Source: Escherichia phage I29. Taken from it: a stretch of 64,000 nt of DNA. The stretch lies in the sequence record ON286975. One strand, 5' to 3'. The notes under the pieces were generated by a model. It was not told the origin of the DNA. It searched no databases and saw nothing but the letters and a program-made list of their open reading frames with translations. Position numbers and translations under genes: made by a program. Below, in pieces: positions 7,470-44,996 of the stretch (position 1 is the first letter of the stretch; each line of letters begins with the position of its first letter).

Positions 7470-9781
7470 TCACCAAGGTAATTAAAAGCAACGGATGTGA
7501 AGTGGCATTCGATCCAGAACGTTTAAATAAGGCAGCTATTTTCGGTGACGACGGTAACGGCAATTGGTCACACATTGCACTGGATGCATACAAACGACTG
7601 TATGATGGATGTACAACCAAAGAAGTTAACCAAGCTATCATAGACTCCTGTGTTAGCCGTAAAGACGAAGCACATTCCCGTATGGCTGGTCGTGTTCTTA
7701 TTGGTCAGATTTATAAAGAGGCTTTTGGAGGGTTTACAAAGATCCCTTCCTTACCATCATTTTACAATACCATGGTTGAGAAAGGGTATTGGGAGGATAT
7801 GGGCTATAGCTTTACCGAGCTAAACACTTTAGACGCTGTTATTGACCACAGTAAAGATCTCGGTTATGGCTATGCAGTCCTTAAACAGTTTCGCGACAAA
7901 TACGGGATCAAGGATACTCTTAAAGACACCCTGTTTGAATCTCCCCAGATGATGTTTATGGGGATAGCAATGGCTGTCATGAAGAATATGCCGAAAGAAC
8001 GTCGTATCAACGATGTTGTAAAATTGTACACTTATCTGTCCGACTTAAAGATCAATGCCCCGACACCGTACTTAAACGGGCTGCGCACAGGTAAGACAGG
8101 GTATGCATCTTGTTGTGTAATAAAAGCTGACGATACAGCAAAATCTATTGGTGTGGCACGTGAAGTTGCGTACACAATGACGGTTAACCAAGCAGGTATC
8201 GGCTACTATTTATCATCAAGATCTGCAGGCGATGGTGTTCGTGGTAACACTATTAAACATATGGGTAAGATTCCATATTATCGAGGTATTGATGCTGGGG
8301 TTAAGGAGAACAGACAACAATCACGTGGCGGTTCTGCAACAGTATCATTCCTTGCACTGGACCCGCAGATTGATGAGCTAATCCGTTTGAGAAACCCTAT
8401 GACTGTTGCTTCAAAAAGAATCAACACCATGGACTACTCCATCGGTATTAATAGGTCGTTTATCAACCGTGTGGCTAAGAATTTGGATTGGATGCTTGTT
8501 TCTTATAAGCACGCGCCTCAACTGCATGAGGGTATCTTCACCATGTCTATGGAGGAGTTTGATGCAGAGGTTGATCGTATCGCTAAAGATGACAGTATTC
8601 CTAAAACATGGATCCGAGCTAGAGATCTTGCTGTTGAGCTGATCACGCAGCGTACCGAGGTGGGAAGACTGTACGTATACTGGACAGATGAGATGAATAG
8701 ACATACACCTTTTAAAGATGTGATCTATTCAAGTAACCTGTGTGCAGAAATAGCTCTCCCGACAAAAGGCTATTCAGATATGCGTAATATCTTCAAGCAC
8801 GATGTTGATGATGGCGAAGTTGCATTGTGCTTCCTGTCATCTCTTGTAGCTGGAAGGGTTACCCCAGAGGAGTATGAGGATGTTGCATACTACACGGTGC
8901 TTATGATTGACAATGTTATGGAAATCATGACATATCCGTATGAAAATATGGAAAGCACAGTTAAAAAACGCAGATCCATCGGGGTTGGCCTTACCAATGT
9001 TGCACATTTTATTGCCAGCCACAAGGTTACTTACGGATCTCCTGAAAGTAAACAGCTCGTTCACGATCTTGCAGAACTTCACAGCTACAGCTTGCATAAG
9101 GCAAGTTTACGGTTGGCAAAAGAGCGTGGTGTCTGCGAGTGGATGCATAAAACAAAATATCCAGAAGGTTGGTTACCAATCGACACCTACAACAAAGAGG
9201 TCGATAGCGTGGTGAAAGATCCTTCTCTTAAACAGGATTGGGAAGGGTTACGTAAAGAAATCATTGAAAATGGTGGGCTACGTAATAGCGTTCTTGAAGC
9301 ATATATGCCTAATGAAAGCTCTTCGCTGGCAACAAACACCACTAACGGGGTTTATCCTGTCCGTGAGCACATTATCTTTAAAAAGTCGCCACAAGGGCAG
9401 GTGCTGTTTATCGTTCCTGACTATGATGAGTTGAAAGAGTATTACACCTCGGCTTGGGACGTTGATACTAACGACATGATCGATATGTATGCTGTAATTC
9501 AAAAATTCACAGGTCAGGCAATCAGCGCGGATTTATACATAGACTACACCAAGTTGAAAGATGGTAAAATTTCAATGAAGGAGCAGTTAGGGTACCTTAT
9601 CCGTGCCACTAAATTCGGGATGAAGACATGGTATTATTTAAACTCTAGGGTTGGTGCTGGTGACTCCTTGGCAGAGGAACTTCATGCCAAGAAACAGGCT
9701 GAAGATGAAACCAGAAAGAACTATCCTTTGATTGCAGATAGTTCAGTTGAAGATCCGTATTGCGAAAGCTGTGCACTATAA
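7466..9781 (+). CDS. nrdA: ribonucleoside-diphosphate reductase alpha subunit (class I)
   Basis: 771 aa; N-terminal ATP-cone; class I active-site NLCAEIALPT; TTG start after GGAGGA. Confidence 0.9.
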   Translation: MITKVIKSNGCEVAFDPERLNKAAIFGDDGNGNWSHIALDAYKRLYDGCTTKEVNQAIIDSCVSRKDEAHSRMAGRVLIGQIYKEAFGGFTKIPSLPSFYNTMVEKGYWEDMGYSFTELNTLDAVIDHSKDLGYGYAVLKQFRDKYGIKDTLKDTLFESPQMMFMGIAMAVMKNMPKERRINDVVKLYTYLSDLKINAPTPYLNGLRTGKTGYASCCVIKADDTAKSIGVAREVAYTMTVNQAGIGYYLSSRSAGDGVRGNTIKHMGKIPYYRGIDAGVKENRQQSRGGSATVSFLALDPQIDELIRLRNPMTVASKRINTMDYSIGINRSFINRVAKNLDWMLVSYKHAPQLHEGIFTMSMEEFDAEVDRIAKDDSIPKTWIRARDLAVELITQRTEVGRLYVYWTDEMNRHTPFKDVIYSSNLCAEIALPTKGYSDMRNIFKHDVDDGEVALCFLSSLVAGRVTPEEYEDVAYYTVLMIDNVMEIMTYPYENMESTVKKRRSIGVGLTNVAHFIASHKVTYGSPESKQLVHDLAELHSYSLHKASLRLAKERGVCEWMHKTKYPEGWLPIDTYNKEVDSVVKDPSLKQDWEGLRKEIIENGGLRNSVLEAYMPNESSSLATNTTNGVYPVREHIIFKKSPQGQVLFIVPDYDELKEYYTSAWDVDTNDMIDMYAVIQKFTGQAISADLYIDYTKLKDGKISMKEQLGYLIRATKFGMKTWYYLNSRVGAGDSLAEELHAKKQAEDETRKNYPLIADSSVEDPYCESCAL

Positions 9782-30850: not shown

Positions 30851-31990
30851 CATACTCTACCTGTCTGATCAATTTCCCCAACCACATCCTCCATATTTTC
30901 CCTGTCTGTACTACCCCTGCCCCGCCGTGAGTCCCGTCATATCTGGCTTTCCAGCAAATATCACACCCACAAATATCATTGCCTGAAGAGGGTTTCATCT
31001 CATAATATATGCCTTACCTGAAGAGCGCTTCATACACCACGTAATTTTTTTTTTAATTGACCCCCTCCCCGCCGCTGGAGAGGTTGGCTTTTCCCACACA
31101 GACCTGAAGAGTCAGCCAGAAATATCTGAACAGGCCCAATTCTACCACGATTTTGACCTGACCTACAGGAGTGCTGCCAGGCGGACGAAATGGGAATCAT
31201 TCTCATTCTTATAACAATTCTCAAATATCGAGGCAGTGAGGCAAATTAATAGGTGAGGCCGTTCACACAATGGCACAACATTTGCAACCTATCTTGTGGG
31301 AGTGAATGAGAATACCTATCATTGTGAGAATAGTTATCATTACGGGCAATTTAACATAATACCCATTATGCGCACCGCTGGTGATACATACAGGGAAAAT
31401 ATGGAGGATGTGGTTGGGGAAATTGATCAGACAGGTAGAGTATGCATACTCTACCTGTCTGATCAATTTCCCCAACCACATCCTCCATATTTTCCCTGTC
31501 TGTACTACCCCTGCCCCGCCGTGAGTCCCGTCATATCTGGCTTTCCAGCAAATATCACACCCACAAATATCATTGCCTGAAGAGGGTTTCATCTCATAAT
31601 ATATGCCTTACCTGAAGAGCGCTTCATACACCACGTAATTTTTTTTTTAATTGACCCCCTCCCCGCCGCTGGAGAGGTTGGCTTTTCCCACACAGACCTG
31701 AAGAGTCAGCCAGAAATATCTGAACAGGCCCAATTCTACCACGATTTTGACCTGACCTACAGGAGTGCTGCCAGGCGGACGAAATGGGAATCATTCTCAT
31801 TCTTATAACAATTCTCAAATATCGAGGCAGTGAGGCAAATTAATAGGTGAGGCCGTTCACACAATGGCACAACATTTGCAACCTATCTTGTGGGAGTGAA
31901 TGAGAATACCTATCATTGTGAGAATAGTTATCATTACGGGCAATTTAACATAATACCCATTATGCGCACCGCTGGTGATACATACAGGGA
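30851..31990. repeat. tandem direct repeat, 594-bp unit x 1.9 copies
   Basis: 30851-31444 is repeated at 31445-31990 with identical sequence where compared; unit contains three CCTGAAGAG motifs and a T10 run. Confidence 0.9.
31393..31496. repeat. perfect 104-bp palindrome at the tandem-repeat junction
   Basis: gggaaaatatggaggatgtggttggggaaattgatcagacaggtagagtatg is immediately followed by its exact reverse complement. Confidence 0.9.
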
Positions 31991-34216: not shown

Positions 34217-34489
34217 TTACTTACGGCGGCAGAATTCAAGCGTTTTTAATTGATAATCTTCCTCAGCCTGGAGTACAACCGCCTCGATCATTTCGTTGGC
34301 ATTGTTGAAGCCATATCCTTTAGCGAATTCATCCGCACCACCTTCGTGATCATGTTCTGCGTTCATCGCTTCCACAAAATGGAATTCAAGATTATTGAGG
34401 TAGGGGCTTGATGTTCCGTCCTCTTTTTCAATGAGATCCCAAATAGCATTAAAACGTGATTCGACTTCTTGGTTAATCCAACTTGACAC
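34217..34489 (-). CDS. acidic hypothetical protein
   Basis: GTG start after AGAGGAAAAC; 90 aa. Confidence 0.5.
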   Translation of the reverse strand: MSSWINQEVESRFNAIWDLIEKEDGTSSPYLNNLEFHFVEAMNAEHDHEGGADEFAKGYGFNNANEMIEAVVLQAEEDYQLKTLEFCRRK

Positions 34490-34703
34490 GGCGTTTTCCT
34501 CTCTTCTGGTTGTGTGGGCACTTTTGCCCTTTCAAGATAAATGTTACCTCACCCCATGGCAGATGTCAACGGTTTTTATAGTTCTTATATGACAGGCAGG
34601 CCCGGTGATTGTCTCCCCCTGTTCCCAAGTGCCGCCCGTTTAATAAGAATAGCAAAAGGGGCCGAACAAGTCAACCCCAAAATCAGTACCAAAACACTTT
34701 TAT

Positions 34704-36629: not shown

Positions 36630-36683
36630 GATGATTTACCTCTCTTTATTTTCATAATTGGGGCCTTTTCGGCCCCGCCAGGT

Positions 36684-43174: not shown

Positions 43175-43238
43175 GATTTTATCCTCTTAGTGTCTTTTGT
43201 GCTTTTAGTGTATTTGGTGTCAGACTATATGTCAATAC

Positions 43239-43436
43239 TTATTTTTTATTAAACCAGTGGTTGATCTGGCCTTTTGTCAGGGCGCAACGATTAAGCTGTT
43301 GCCGGGTATAGCTCTGACCGCGACGGAATTTATAAAGGCCTTGCCCGTTGTTGATGGTTACGTCCACCTGGCAAACCATTTGATCGGTGACGGCCTGGTA
43401 AGTGTTGCGACGTACTTTAATTCCGTAGGCGTTCAT
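43239..43436 (-). CDS. small basic protein
   Basis: 65 aa; AGAGGATAAAAAATC RBS. Confidence 0.45.
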   Translation of the reverse strand: MNAYGIKVRRNTYQAVTDQMVCQVDVTINNGQGLYKFRRGQSYTRQQLNRCALTKGQINHWFNKK

Positions 43437-43805
43437 GATTTTTTATCCTCTCTGTTAATTAGTGTGGTGTTGTTCACCTTGCGAGGATAAGAATAACAGA
43501 ACTCTCCGAGCTGTCAACCATTAGTTAGAATTATTTTTTGGGAAGAATTCTCCAGCCGCCGCCCCTGCCAGGTTAACCATCATTTTTCGTACTCTTCTTT
43601 ATGTTCCAACGCTCCCGCCATAGCCTTTTCAACCAGGGTGATAACTTCAGCGGCGTTGATCGCTACATTTTCCAGGGGATTATATTACTTTTCATTTTTG
43701 TACCTCCTCTTCAATTGTTACCTGCCCTGTAGCATAGGCCTGCCAGGCTGGCCCCGCCAGGTTGCAACGGTTAGCGCATCAGGTTAGAAAAATTTTTTGA
43801 AAAGT

Positions 43806-43834
43806 GTTGACAGCGGCCCCGCCAGGTGGCACAA
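43806..43834 (+). promoter_or_regulatory. sigma70-type promoter (plus strand, inside minus-strand region)
   Basis: TTGACA-17-CACAAT; overlaps GCCCCGCCAGGT motif. Confidence 0.4.
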
Positions 43835-43841
43835 TATACCT

Positions 43842-43935
43842 ATCGAAAGGACGGCAGGCACCGGTGACGGGGGAGACAACCACCGGGGATGGGCGCTGCA
43901 TAAAATGAGAACGGTTATCATTATCATTTAAAAAT
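43842..43935 (+). ncRNA. candidate small RNA unit 1
   Basis: Hairpin ccggtg-(acgggggagacaac)-caccgg; about 75% nucleotide identity to unit 2; contains an 8-codon Ile-rich mini-ORF (MRTVIIII, 43904-43930). Confidence 0.3.
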
Positions 43936-43949
43936 TTATGCAAAAAATC

Positions 43950-43980
43950 CTTGCTTTCTTTGTCCTGTGTGATACTATAA
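43950..43980 (+). promoter_or_regulatory. sigma70-type promoter (plus strand)
   Basis: TATAAT -10 at 43975-43980; weak -35 TTGCTT. Confidence 0.4.
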
Positions 43981-43986
43981 TAACAA

Positions 43987-44072
43987 GCCGGGGCAACAGG
44001 GGCCGGGAGACAATCACCGGGGGTGCCCGTTATTCTGCAAACGAGAATGATTATCATTCAAAATTCTAAATG
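43987..44072 (+). ncRNA. candidate small RNA unit 2
   Basis: Paralogue of unit 1: shared GGGAGACAA(C/T)CACCGGGG and GAGAA(C/T)G(G/A)TTATCATT; mini-ORF MIIIQNSK at 44046-44072. Confidence 0.3.
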
Positions 44073-44169
44073 AGAACTCCTCGCATTTAATAAATTTAAT
44101 TAGCGTGCTAATTACCCTCCGTAACAATTTCCTATAAAACAGTATCCCATAAAATATTCCCATATAGAA

Positions 44170-44350
44170 ATTTTAAAAATCCATTTCTGAAAACGAAAAA
44201 TCGATTTCGTTCCCAAAAATTTCAGGTCGAGCTCCGGAACGATTTCCAGAAAATCCGATTCAGAAAACGAAAAACAGATCGAGTACTGAGAAATTTATCG
44301 AGAAAAATTTTCAGAAAATTCAATCTTTGAAACGAAAAACAGATCGAGTA
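44170..44350. repeat. degenerate tandem repeats (about 3 copies, 65-75 bp period)
   Basis: Cores GAAAACGAAAAA(T/C)(C/A)GAT... at 44188, 44262, 44328; copy 1 carries inverted repeat AACGAAA/TTTCGTT. Confidence 0.6.
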
Positions 44351-44596
44351 CCCGGAAAGCTGTACCGCAACCTCAAGATAGTGGTTAGACTATTACCATA
44401 AAAAGTCAAGGGTAAGTGGAGGAAGTTCTAGTAGAAGGATGTGAGCATGTGCGGGAAATCTGTAGTGGTGGTCTGGAATATGGTGCAAACGATAGGATGA
44501 GCGATTCAGCTTGTCGCGCCTACTCTGAAAAATCCATTTTAGTTTTCGATCCATTTTCTGATTTTCTAAGAATTTTAAAATATCTGGTCCGGTGAA

Positions 44597-44631
44597 ATAT
44601 CAAAAGGAGGAAATCCATTTTAGAAATCCTC
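44597..44631 (-). terminator. intrinsic terminator (minus strand)
   Basis: ggagga-(15 nt)-tcctcc followed on the minus strand by TTTTGATATTT; 3' of gene 44664-44996. Confidence 0.55.
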
Positions 44632-44663
44632 CTGATCTCTAGCAACCTGATAACTTAAAAATA

Positions 44664-44996
44664 TCAGGTGCCCAGTTTGTTCTTTCCTTTATACAACCGT
44701 AAGGGTATAGTTTTTGTAACAGTCCATCTCCCCAGCCCTTCCCAGTTCCAGTTGTAGGCATGGTACCCGGTTACGCATGCACTGCTAGAGTGGTCATAGG
44801 CATAAGAGAACGCTATACGCACCAAATGGAACCAGTCTTTCCACGGTTGTGGTCCGTAAGCTTTTCTCCAACACCGACACAAACTAAATGTCTCAAGAAT
44901 AGGTAGGATAACAAATCCATACACCGCCACCAGAATAGCCAGCGCAATGATTGTCAGGAATACATACCCTGCAGTTGAAACGATGATCTCTGTCAT
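44664..44996 (-). CDS. membrane protein
   Basis: N-terminal hydrophobic region EIIVSTAGYVFLTIIALAILVAVYGFVILPIL. Confidence 0.5.
   Translation of the reverse strand: MTEIIVSTAGYVFLTIIALAILVAVYGFVILPILETFSLCRCWRKAYGPQPWKDWFHLVRIAFSYAYDHSSSACVTGYHAYNWNWEGLGRWTVTKTIPLRLYKGKNKLGT

Follow-up and report, generated by a model that had tools for sequence, protein, structure and literature searches.

What is the function of two similar units that lie in a 1.2-kb gap between minus-strand genes of Escherichia phage I29 and that face against the direction of these genes? The stretch analysed here, referred to as the window, comprises 64,000 nucleotides of sequence record ON286975. A preliminary description had taken the two units for paralogous elements resembling small regulatory RNAs (sRNAs), each with a plus-strand promoter, a shared hairpin and a conserved 3' segment, and each ending in an isoleucine-rich mini-open reading frame (mini-ORF). 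The intergenic location was borne out, as the flanking minus-strand genes end at 43436 and start at 44664 (window coordinates) and Shigella phage CM1, which is 99.9% identical over the region, has no coding sequence annotated inside. The same region is 90-96% identical in about 120 rV5-like phages (genus Vequintavirus), and 105 records have an identity of 95% or more over a 321-nt core, whereas the whole gap is mostly at 90-95%. We propose that its informative part consists of previously unrecognised operators of the ferric uptake regulator Fur, placed on duplicated early promoter cassettes that are conserved across two phage subfamilies and have a parallel in T5-like phages. The reading that we favour, with a probability of roughly 45%, is that these are early plus-strand promoters whose transcripts would meet Fur operators, leading to iron-gated transcription or to titration of Fur.

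Palindromic boxes as probable Fur operators

Alignment of the conserved 3' segment with its relatives reduced it to one 19-bp palindrome, AATGAGAAT-N-ATTCTCATT, hereafter called the box. The E. coli Fur consensus GATAATGATAATCATTATC is described as a 19-bp sequence, or as two overlapping 7-1-7 inverted repeats (PMC11353095). Shuffled sequences gave 0.33 sites with 15 of 19 matches to this consensus and none with 16 of 19, the values that the two best boxes of the gap reach (Table 1). Six members of the palindrome family AATGAGAATNATTCTCATT are present in the window against 0.08 expected.

The assignment to Fur is based on three tests. Firstly, the exact palindrome was found at more than 120 loci in bacterial genomes, compared with about 17 by a rough chance estimate, and the genes flanking it are devoted to iron or metal uptake at 8 of 10 sampled loci (two FecI-type extracytoplasmic function sigma factors, FeoA, an Fe2+ transport protein, a siderophore-type binding protein of the Peripla_BP_2 family and one of the FbpA type, ZnuA/SitA and an ABC ATPase). 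Secondly, when a weight matrix made from 31 phage boxes was applied to the 26-kb ent-fep region of E. coli K-12, the top six sites were located between fepA and fes, between fepD and entS and between fepB and entC. These three intergenic regions are controlled by Fur as part of the enterobactin regulon. Thirdly, a matrix trained only on distant phages, which is the source of all bit scores given for boxes of the window, detected 10 sites in the window that reach 15 bits or more, where shuffles gave 0.375, and 9 of the 10 were in two non-coding clusters. The boxes of the cluster at 31.2 kb scored 18.9-26.4 bits even though they were outside the training set of the matrix.

The way in which the boxes vary is informative as well. 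Departures from the palindrome were counted by position pair among 31 distinct boxes, and 52 were one-sided, 3 compensatory and 5 doubly non-complementary. Because the variation is one-sided and rarely compensatory, it indicates that the box would be a protein-binding DNA site and not an RNA hairpin. The idea that the 3' segment is conserved at the RNA level could thus not be upheld, given the uncompensated variation and the occurrence of the palindrome in arrays. Taken together, the comparisons make it probable that the boxes are Fur-type operators, and E. coli Fur would presumably bind them in vivo.

The 31.2-kb cluster is found again at 31783-31935, as it is carried by a perfect 546-bp direct repeat (30851-31396 and 31445-31990) situated in the non-coding zone where the plus-strand and minus-strand gene blocks converge. 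The junction of this repeat has a 130-nt palindrome (31380-31509) with 65-nt arms that are 95% identical. Only about 10 of 119 related records have both copies, and the duplication may be either an assembly artefact or a real tandem duplication.

A conserved cassette of promoter, leader and boxes

The two units of the gap were confirmed as paralogous repeats. An identity of about 75% had been claimed for them, and we found 72% over the overall alignment of unit 1 with unit 2, with 90% over the 21 nt of GGGAGACAAYCACCGGGGRTG (43871 and 44005) and 73% over the 33 nt that begin with AAAYGAGAAYGRTTATCATT (43903 and 44039). The sequences that they share exceed chance, with three copies in the window of an 18-mer (0.05 expected) and six of the 16-mer GAGAAYNNNTATCATT (0.36 expected). 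Of the two proposed plus-strand promoters, P1 is a strong match that also has the TG element. P2 was not called by the promoter-prediction tool and its -35 hexamer TTGCTT matches in 3 of 6 positions only; it reads as an extended -10 promoter, and the relatives L014, L018 and L019 keep its TG and TACTAT but vary in the intervening base. Both P1 and P2 would be expected to fire.

Unit 2 was recognisable at 70-90% identity over 60-160 nt in genomes that are otherwise diverged, including those of Mydovirus, Seunavirus (PVP-SE1, GAP31), Certrevirus (CR3, CB7, POP17), Henunavirus, a Serratia phage and Phapecoctavirus (phAPEC8). Roughly 238 homologous regions were counted among phages in GenBank. We compared 18 modules from Vequintavirinae and Stephanstirmvirinae, and the order of promoter, leader, YATTCT hexamer and boxes was identical in all 18. 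Every module has a plus-strand sigma70 promoter with 7-11 of 12 matches, followed by a G-rich leader of 55-60 nt in which ACRGGG precedes the invariant motif GAGACAAnCACC (the leader RNA motif is also denoted GGGAGACAAUCACC) and CUGCC follows it. The number of boxes per module ranges from 1 to 7, and most neighbouring boxes start 29 nt apart. The rV5-like phages duplicated this cassette into the tandem units 1 and 2, and the number of units varies, with a single one in the metagenomic sequence L006, a hybrid pair in L018 and two in rV5. These regularities suggest that the plus strand is probably transcribed and that the leader motif probably matters.

Table 1. Positions in the window of the predicted elements of the cassettes and of the putative Fur boxes
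Feature	Position	Strand	Description
Promoter P1	43807..43835	+	TTGACA-17-CACAAT, 10/12, with TG; G+C-rich spacer holds GGCCCCGCCAGGT (43815-43827)
Leader unit 1	43842..43903	+	G-rich; motif GGGAGACAACCACCGGGG at 43871-43888; start is the transcription start expected from the -10
Putative Fur box 1	43904..43922		AATGAGAACGGTTATCATT; 16/19 in the E. coli register 43907-43925; 26.0 bits; holds the MRTVIIII start (ATG 43905)
Promoter P2	43951..43981	+	-35 TTGCTT (43951-56), extended -10 TG-n-TACTAT (43970-78; TG at 43970-71, TACTAT at 43973-78, spacer 16 nt), overlapping TATAAT (43976-81); alternative reading TTGCTT-N19-TATAAT, 9/12
Leader unit 2	43985..44039	+	Motif GGGAGACAATCACCGGGG at 44005-44022; start is the expected transcription start
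Weak candidate promoter	44032..44061	-	TTGAAT-N18-CAGAAT, 8/12; box 2 fills the spacer
Putative Fur box 2	44040..44058		AACGAGAATGATTATCATT; 15/19 in the E. coli register 44043-44061; 25.4 bits; holds the MIIIQNSK start (ATG 44047)
Putative Fur box 3	44069..44087		Degenerate, AATGAGAACTCCTCGCATT; starts 29 nt after box 2; 16.0 bits
Second cluster of putative Fur boxes	31189..31341		Three boxes (31189-31207, 31305-31323, 31323-31341); without leader motif
Third cassette copy	34541..34674	-	Inverted; box decayed and non-functional; leader with GGGAGACAATCACCGGGC (34600-34617)

The third copy of the cassette is arranged as a promoter (TTGACT-17-TATTCT), the leader and a second promoter (TTGACA-17-TAACAT), the latter upstream of the gene at 34217-34489. 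We also considered whether the leader motif could be the -35 of a second plus-strand promoter (GAGACA-N18-TATTCT). This was rejected, as it matches in only 7-8 of 12 positions and the copies of the motif in L012 and L015 lack a -10 at this distance.

The motif GGCCCCGCCAGGT had been reported to recur here and near 36665, and it does so. Exact copies start at 43750, 43815 and 36671 and variants at 43561 and 37158, which makes five copies against 0.56 expected. Their contexts differ and include the spacer of P1, a CUGGC-CCC-GCCAG hairpin that precedes P1 and, at 36.67 kb between minus-strand genes, a position next to a GGGGCC-GAAAA-GGCCCC hairpin. The motif is kept in the relatives L006, L014 and L018.

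Proposed iron gating of the early promoters

How such a cassette would work can be proposed only tentatively, and we consider the specific gating mechanism, that is roadblock or occlusion in dependence on iron, somewhat doubtful. Plus-strand transcription by host RNA polymerase would begin at P1 and P2 and run opposite to the early genes around them, and about 55-60 nt downstream the polymerase would meet Fe-Fur on the boxes, bound at approximately +55 to +105. When iron is plentiful, Fur would block or truncate these antisense-directed transcripts and, in most relatives, it would also cover a weak minus-strand promoter whose spacer contains box 1. Under iron shortage, Fur would leave the boxes and transcription through the island would change. 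No plus-strand terminator-like site was found in 43200-44800, and the lack of an intrinsic terminator after P1 and P2 fits termination by a protein roadblock. The minus-strand candidate TTGAAT-N18-CAGAAT with a box in its 18-nt spacer was present in 12 of 18 related phages; in its geometry this corresponds to classical Fur repression, although not all of the phages have it. If the cassette operates in this manner, the phage probably senses or manipulates the iron status of its host.

The comparison with Fur-repressed promoters of enterobacteria has two sides. The phage operators appear to be of the same class, with 15-16 of 19 matches, the phage matrix finds the E. coli sites, and multiple adjacent boxes would allow arrays of bound Fur. 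In contrast, the phage boxes are more perfect palindromes with a period of mostly 29 nt, they are located about 55-60 nt downstream of strong promoters, and they belong to a virulent phage without an iron-related gene nearby. The genes next to the gap are small minus-strand ORFs, all in PHROGs without known function; none had a Pfam match above the curated cutoff of the family, and comparison of these neighbours with PHROG and Pfam revealed no iron-related gene near the boxes in the phage of the window.

Several further observations speak against iron-gated promoters. The left half of the box is GAGAAT in 27 of 31 boxes where GATAAT is canonical, and the affinity for enterobacterial Fur is therefore an assumption. 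The boxes miss the -35 and -10 of the strong plus-strand promoters, the position in which Fur usually represses (PMC11353095), and this usual geometry is seen only in the weak minus-strand candidate with its 8 of 12 matches, in the 12 of 18 phages mentioned above. Boxes are present without the leader in the 31.2-kb cluster and the leader without boxes at 34.6 kb, in L012 and in L015, and the two are therefore separable parts. The same boxes occur in T5 in a non-promoter context, which hints at a role outside transcription. Finally, literature searches yielded neither a description of Fur boxes in these phages nor a Vequintavirus transcriptome.

Titration, anchoring and other possible roles of the boxes

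A first alternative is that the boxes act as a decoy and do not control a local promoter. In this case the hundreds of genome copies made during replication, each with 6-9 near-perfect boxes, would titrate Fur, so that host iron uptake is derepressed for the needs of the phage or a Fur-dependent response of the host is blunted. No promoter hexamers accompany boxes 2-7 of the arrays or any part of the second cluster, which agrees with a decoy, and so does the strength of the boxes, as phage boxes score 19-28 bits and the boxes of E. coli ent and fep 14-17 bits with the same matrix. The exact palindrome was also found at more than 120 loci in viral contigs, and 43 of 120 among the matches listed have clusters of at least three strong boxes, several of them in T5-like phages. 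However, box 1 has a fixed position after promoter and leader in all 18 modules, for which a pure sponge would have no need, and the number of boxes per genome is modest. We therefore regard a decoy without local control as unlikely.

The occurrence of the boxes in T5-like phages leads to further alternatives. In T5 itself (L274; AY587007) the boxes coincide with the annotated 'direct repeat C' and the palindromes E, G and I at 9473-9631, in a stretch (9468-9637) that adjoins the 7.9% nick and is at the boundary of first-step transfer. This Repeat Region 3 of the left terminal repeat, the injection-stop region, has the same box, for instance AAATGAGAATCATTATCATT, with 25-31 bits at 9473, 9577 and 9612. 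As in the rV5-like phages, the boxes are arranged in tandem (at about 29-35 nt in T5-like phages), the region is untranslated and conserved, and the phage is a large virulent coliphage. They differ in that the T5 boxes are beside DnaA boxes and after operon terminators and are not preceded by a promoter-plus-leader cassette. In Salmonella phage S130 (L214, 3460-3830) an array is beside paired DnaA boxes and a perfect LexA-type box, TACTGTATATTTATACAGTA. A comparative study of the T5 region, in which DnaA boxes and many repeats without an explanation are discussed, contains no mention of Fur (bioRxiv 10.1101/866236).

From this parallel it can be speculated that unrelated large virulent coliphages (rV5-, phAPEC8- and T5-like) each acquired near-perfect arrays of Fur operators in untranslated islands as a structural tool. 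Such a tool could be a roadblock or anchor that ends early transcription or stalls the incoming DNA, as in the T5 injection stop, or a sponge that derepresses iron uptake, and the leader with GAGACAAnCACC would then define a novel family of phage RNAs that act on a target in the host. We give this scenario only a minor chance.

It is also conceivable that a protein other than Fur, encoded by the phage or not, binds the boxes as iterons or anchors in replication, genome organisation or stepwise DNA entry, compare the injection-stop repeats of T5, and that the resemblance to Fur boxes is incidental. The spacing of 29 nt between the starts of most neighbouring boxes would suit such a protein, as would the consistent GAGAAT and the identical arrays next to the nick and the DnaA boxes of T5 (bioRxiv 10.1101/866236). 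About 100 nt downstream of the boxes there are in addition three 57-nt direct repeats (AAATCC..TTCAGAAAACGAAAAACAGATCGAGTAC) at 44163-44358, spaced 74 and 65 nt, which look like iterons. On the other hand, the phage-box matrix recovers Fur-controlled regions of E. coli, the exact palindrome flanks iron genes in many bacteria, and the T5-like and rV5-like phages share hosts but no obvious DNA-binding protein. A search for DnaA, LexA, CpxR, Ter and IHF boxes gave none in the two non-coding islands of the window. Cumulative GC skew has its sole turn at about 30 kb, where the gene orientation switches, and none at 44 kb. The direct repeats and the AT-rich arrays would suit a replication origin, but DnaA boxes and a skew turn at 44 kb are missing. 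A binding protein other than Fur is in our view quite improbable.

In distant relatives, related 'GAAAA..CGATCGAGAAC' repeats, also of iteron-like appearance, come after the box arrays.

The leader as a possible small regulatory RNA

The preliminary description of the units as sRNA-like was only partly substantiated. What remains of it is the pair of plausible plus-strand sigma70 promoters and the conservation of promoter plus leader in all 18 homologous regions; the conserved 3' segment, in contrast, proved to be the palindromic, putative Fur operator, and a terminator, an Rfam match and a consensus structure were all lacking. In its strict form this explanation states that each unit is an sRNA gene in which GGGAGACAAYCACCGGGG is a seed or a protein-binding site, the boxes merely being in or after the 3' part.

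Besides the conserved arrangement, three observations are in line with an sRNA. In the distant clade, the first bases of the transcript can form a terminal stem with the bases just before the boxes, which pairs in 86.6% of cells compared with 24-57% in slid controls, and 13 G-U cells, which would be mismatches if the RNA were made from the other strand, favour the plus strand. The leader motif also occurs four times in an uncultivated viral contig, IMGVR_UViG_3300027123_000194 (L012, L015), each time about 20 nt past a promoter. These copies are part of four terminator-promoter-GGAGACAAWCACCGGGG-U-run cassettes, and the one with a terminator 50 nt downstream looks like an sRNA gene of about 90 nt. 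Nothing in the phage collection matched the contig, nor did the window in a tblastx comparison. Moreover, rV5-like phages are known to carry non-coding RNA decoys, such as pseudo-ToxI in phiTE (PMC3475682). The pseudo-ToxI locus itself differs from the module studied here, which corresponds to phiTE_078/079.

The structural evidence did not support an sRNA. The folding energies of the two units were ordinary (z = -1.35 and -0.74, no better than shuffles), and the fold z-scores overall ranged from -2.7 to +1.2. The hairpin that the two units were said to share is weak, as unit 2 alone has the 4-bp CCGG/CCGG stem around GAGACAAUCA and unit 1 requires another pairing. Nor is this inner hairpin maintained in related phages: POP17 and CB7 have an uncompensated G-to-A change, phAPEC8 and ChuuTotoro have no stem, and it was rejected as a conserved element. 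RNAalifold returned 0 consensus pairs over 19 leader sequences, and covariation analysis gave nothing convincing for the leader. For the terminal stem, covariation equalled that of shuffles (197 of 500), with double changes at one pair, and three sequences break the stem.

Rfam 15 contained no family for the window or its relatives, either at the gathering threshold or at permissive settings (E up to 10 for the window region and up to 0.1 for the relatives), and known RNA families and riboswitches were rejected on this basis. Unit 2 had no blastn match in 5,426 E. coli genomes, which speaks against mimicry of the host by extended sequence, and a G-quadruplex in the leader was rejected because the number of G-tracts is not conserved. 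With the absence of a plus-strand terminator added to this, we consider it rather improbable that each unit is a self-contained sRNA gene.

Coding potential of the region

A 92-amino-acid minus-strand protein is annotated as ORF198 in rV5 (43779-44057). The frame is open in the window, in CM1 and in rV5 and matches PHROG 14993, but two in-frame stops interrupt it in the 93% identical relative L014. The repeat units are 134-136 nt apart and so mutually out of frame; the ORF is missing from about half of the related annotations and is absent in distant relatives that keep the DNA, and it has no Pfam match. That the region encodes this protein is very improbable.

The mini-ORFs of the preliminary description, MRTVIIII and MIIIQNSK, exist, each ending in a stop codon, and they could suggest leader peptides of an attenuator that senses the isoleucine supply, since ATC/ATT codon runs follow the ATG in both units and the same frame reads MRMIIIQ... 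in relatives; this is nevertheless hardly credible, as the isoleucine codons (ATC ATT ATC) are the Fur box read as protein and every box of an array opens the same pseudo-ORF, no Shine-Dalgarno sequence is found at a workable distance, the ORF length is unconserved (8 to more than 30 codons, with a varying stop position), a terminator/antiterminator pair is lacking, and no plus-strand gene is downstream, all neighbours being on the minus strand. The two mini-ORFs had been said to have different offsets, from which conservation at the RNA level was suggested. Their starts are 6 nt apart and, measured against the shared sequence, they keep one register, so that this argument fails. Nor does the leader code for protein, because its length differs by 1, 3 or 5 nt between relatives, that is also by numbers that are not multiples of 3. 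The region is non-coding.

The minus strand at 43556-43700 has a strong ribosome-binding site, GAGGAGG, and after it MKSNIIPWKM up to a stop; the protein-like NVAINAAEVITLVEKAMAGALEHKEEYEK then runs on in another frame. This could possibly be a frameshifted small gene or a sequencing error. A small plus-strand gene of about 60 amino acids (MEN.KV.TSETMVTL.TWE...) with its own promoter opens the plus-strand island of distant relatives (L003, 1069-1260; L004, 1097-1279; L021, 1573-1758) and has no counterpart in the window.

The cassette is also not a tRNA remnant, as ARAGORN detected no tRNA at the homologous spot or in the window. In Klebsiella phage vB_Kpn_K45PH128C2 (L002; OY978796.1, 10349-11044) tRNA-Lys, tRNA-Ile and tRNA-Met are annotated over the cassette region. 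Because ARAGORN finds none there, this annotation is probably misplaced.

Sequences upstream of the cassette in relatives

Some relatives have additional elements just upstream of the cassette. In distant relatives (L003, 1340-1420; L004, L005 and L020-L026) there is a second promoter-driven, conserved non-coding element of about 85 nt, ACGCCACCCCACGGCGAAAAGGCGGGGCUAAC...GGUGGAUCGCCGGUAG, of which a diverged counterpart is found in the window at about 43720-43790. It contains a Shine-Dalgarno-like AGGAG without an AUG. RNAalifold gave 15 pairs, one of them with GC/AU covariation, and there was no Rfam match.

Directly upstream of the cassette -35, the distant relatives L003, L004, L005, L020, L021 and others have a conserved tandem GTAAA-N5-GTAAA (TTTGTAAAGATTTGTAAAGA, period 10), which the window lacks and which matches the CpxR-box consensus. 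The sequence AATGTTGTAACTAA occurs just upstream of the cassette promoter in the metagenomic rV5-like L006 (at about 400 and 500, reverse strand) and in L018. These are perfect matches to the Ter/Tus core of E. coli, and in the window no matches to this core above chance were found.

Relation to other phage regulatory cassettes

The cassette can be compared with the PeSL cassettes of T4-like phages (PMC4122927, PMC2839356). Both are short repeated cassettes with strong sigma70 early promoters among small early genes and with adjacent G+C-rich stem-loops, and in both the copy number and composition vary among close relatives (here L006, L018 and rV5). In the third copy only, a terminator-like hairpin overlaps the -35 of the promoter, which is a further likeness to PeSLs. 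Unlike PeSLs, the present cassettes carry a 12-nt leader motif and the putative Fur boxes, and there are 3 copies in 64 kb, two of which point against the surrounding gene flow.

A reported precedent for a lytic phage whose control regions contain binding sites of a global regulator of the host, by which infection is coupled to the state of the host, is given by the CtrA sites of alphaproteobacterial phages (PMC9437464). The regulator (here Fur), the signal (here iron), the hosts and the architecture of the arrays differ.

Implications

The 'hypothetical proteins' of the ORF198 type and the isoleucine-rich mini-ORFs annotated or proposed here are artefacts of a regulatory DNA motif. If host Fur does occupy the boxes, it would be a concrete candidate protein for the injection-stop repeats of T5, which have been described for decades without a binding partner. 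Phages that are used for typing and therapy, such as rV5, phAPEC8, PVP-SE1 and relatives of T5, would in that case couple a part of their early programme to the iron status of the host, or disturb this status, in which laboratory broth contrasts sharply with the gut or infected tissue.

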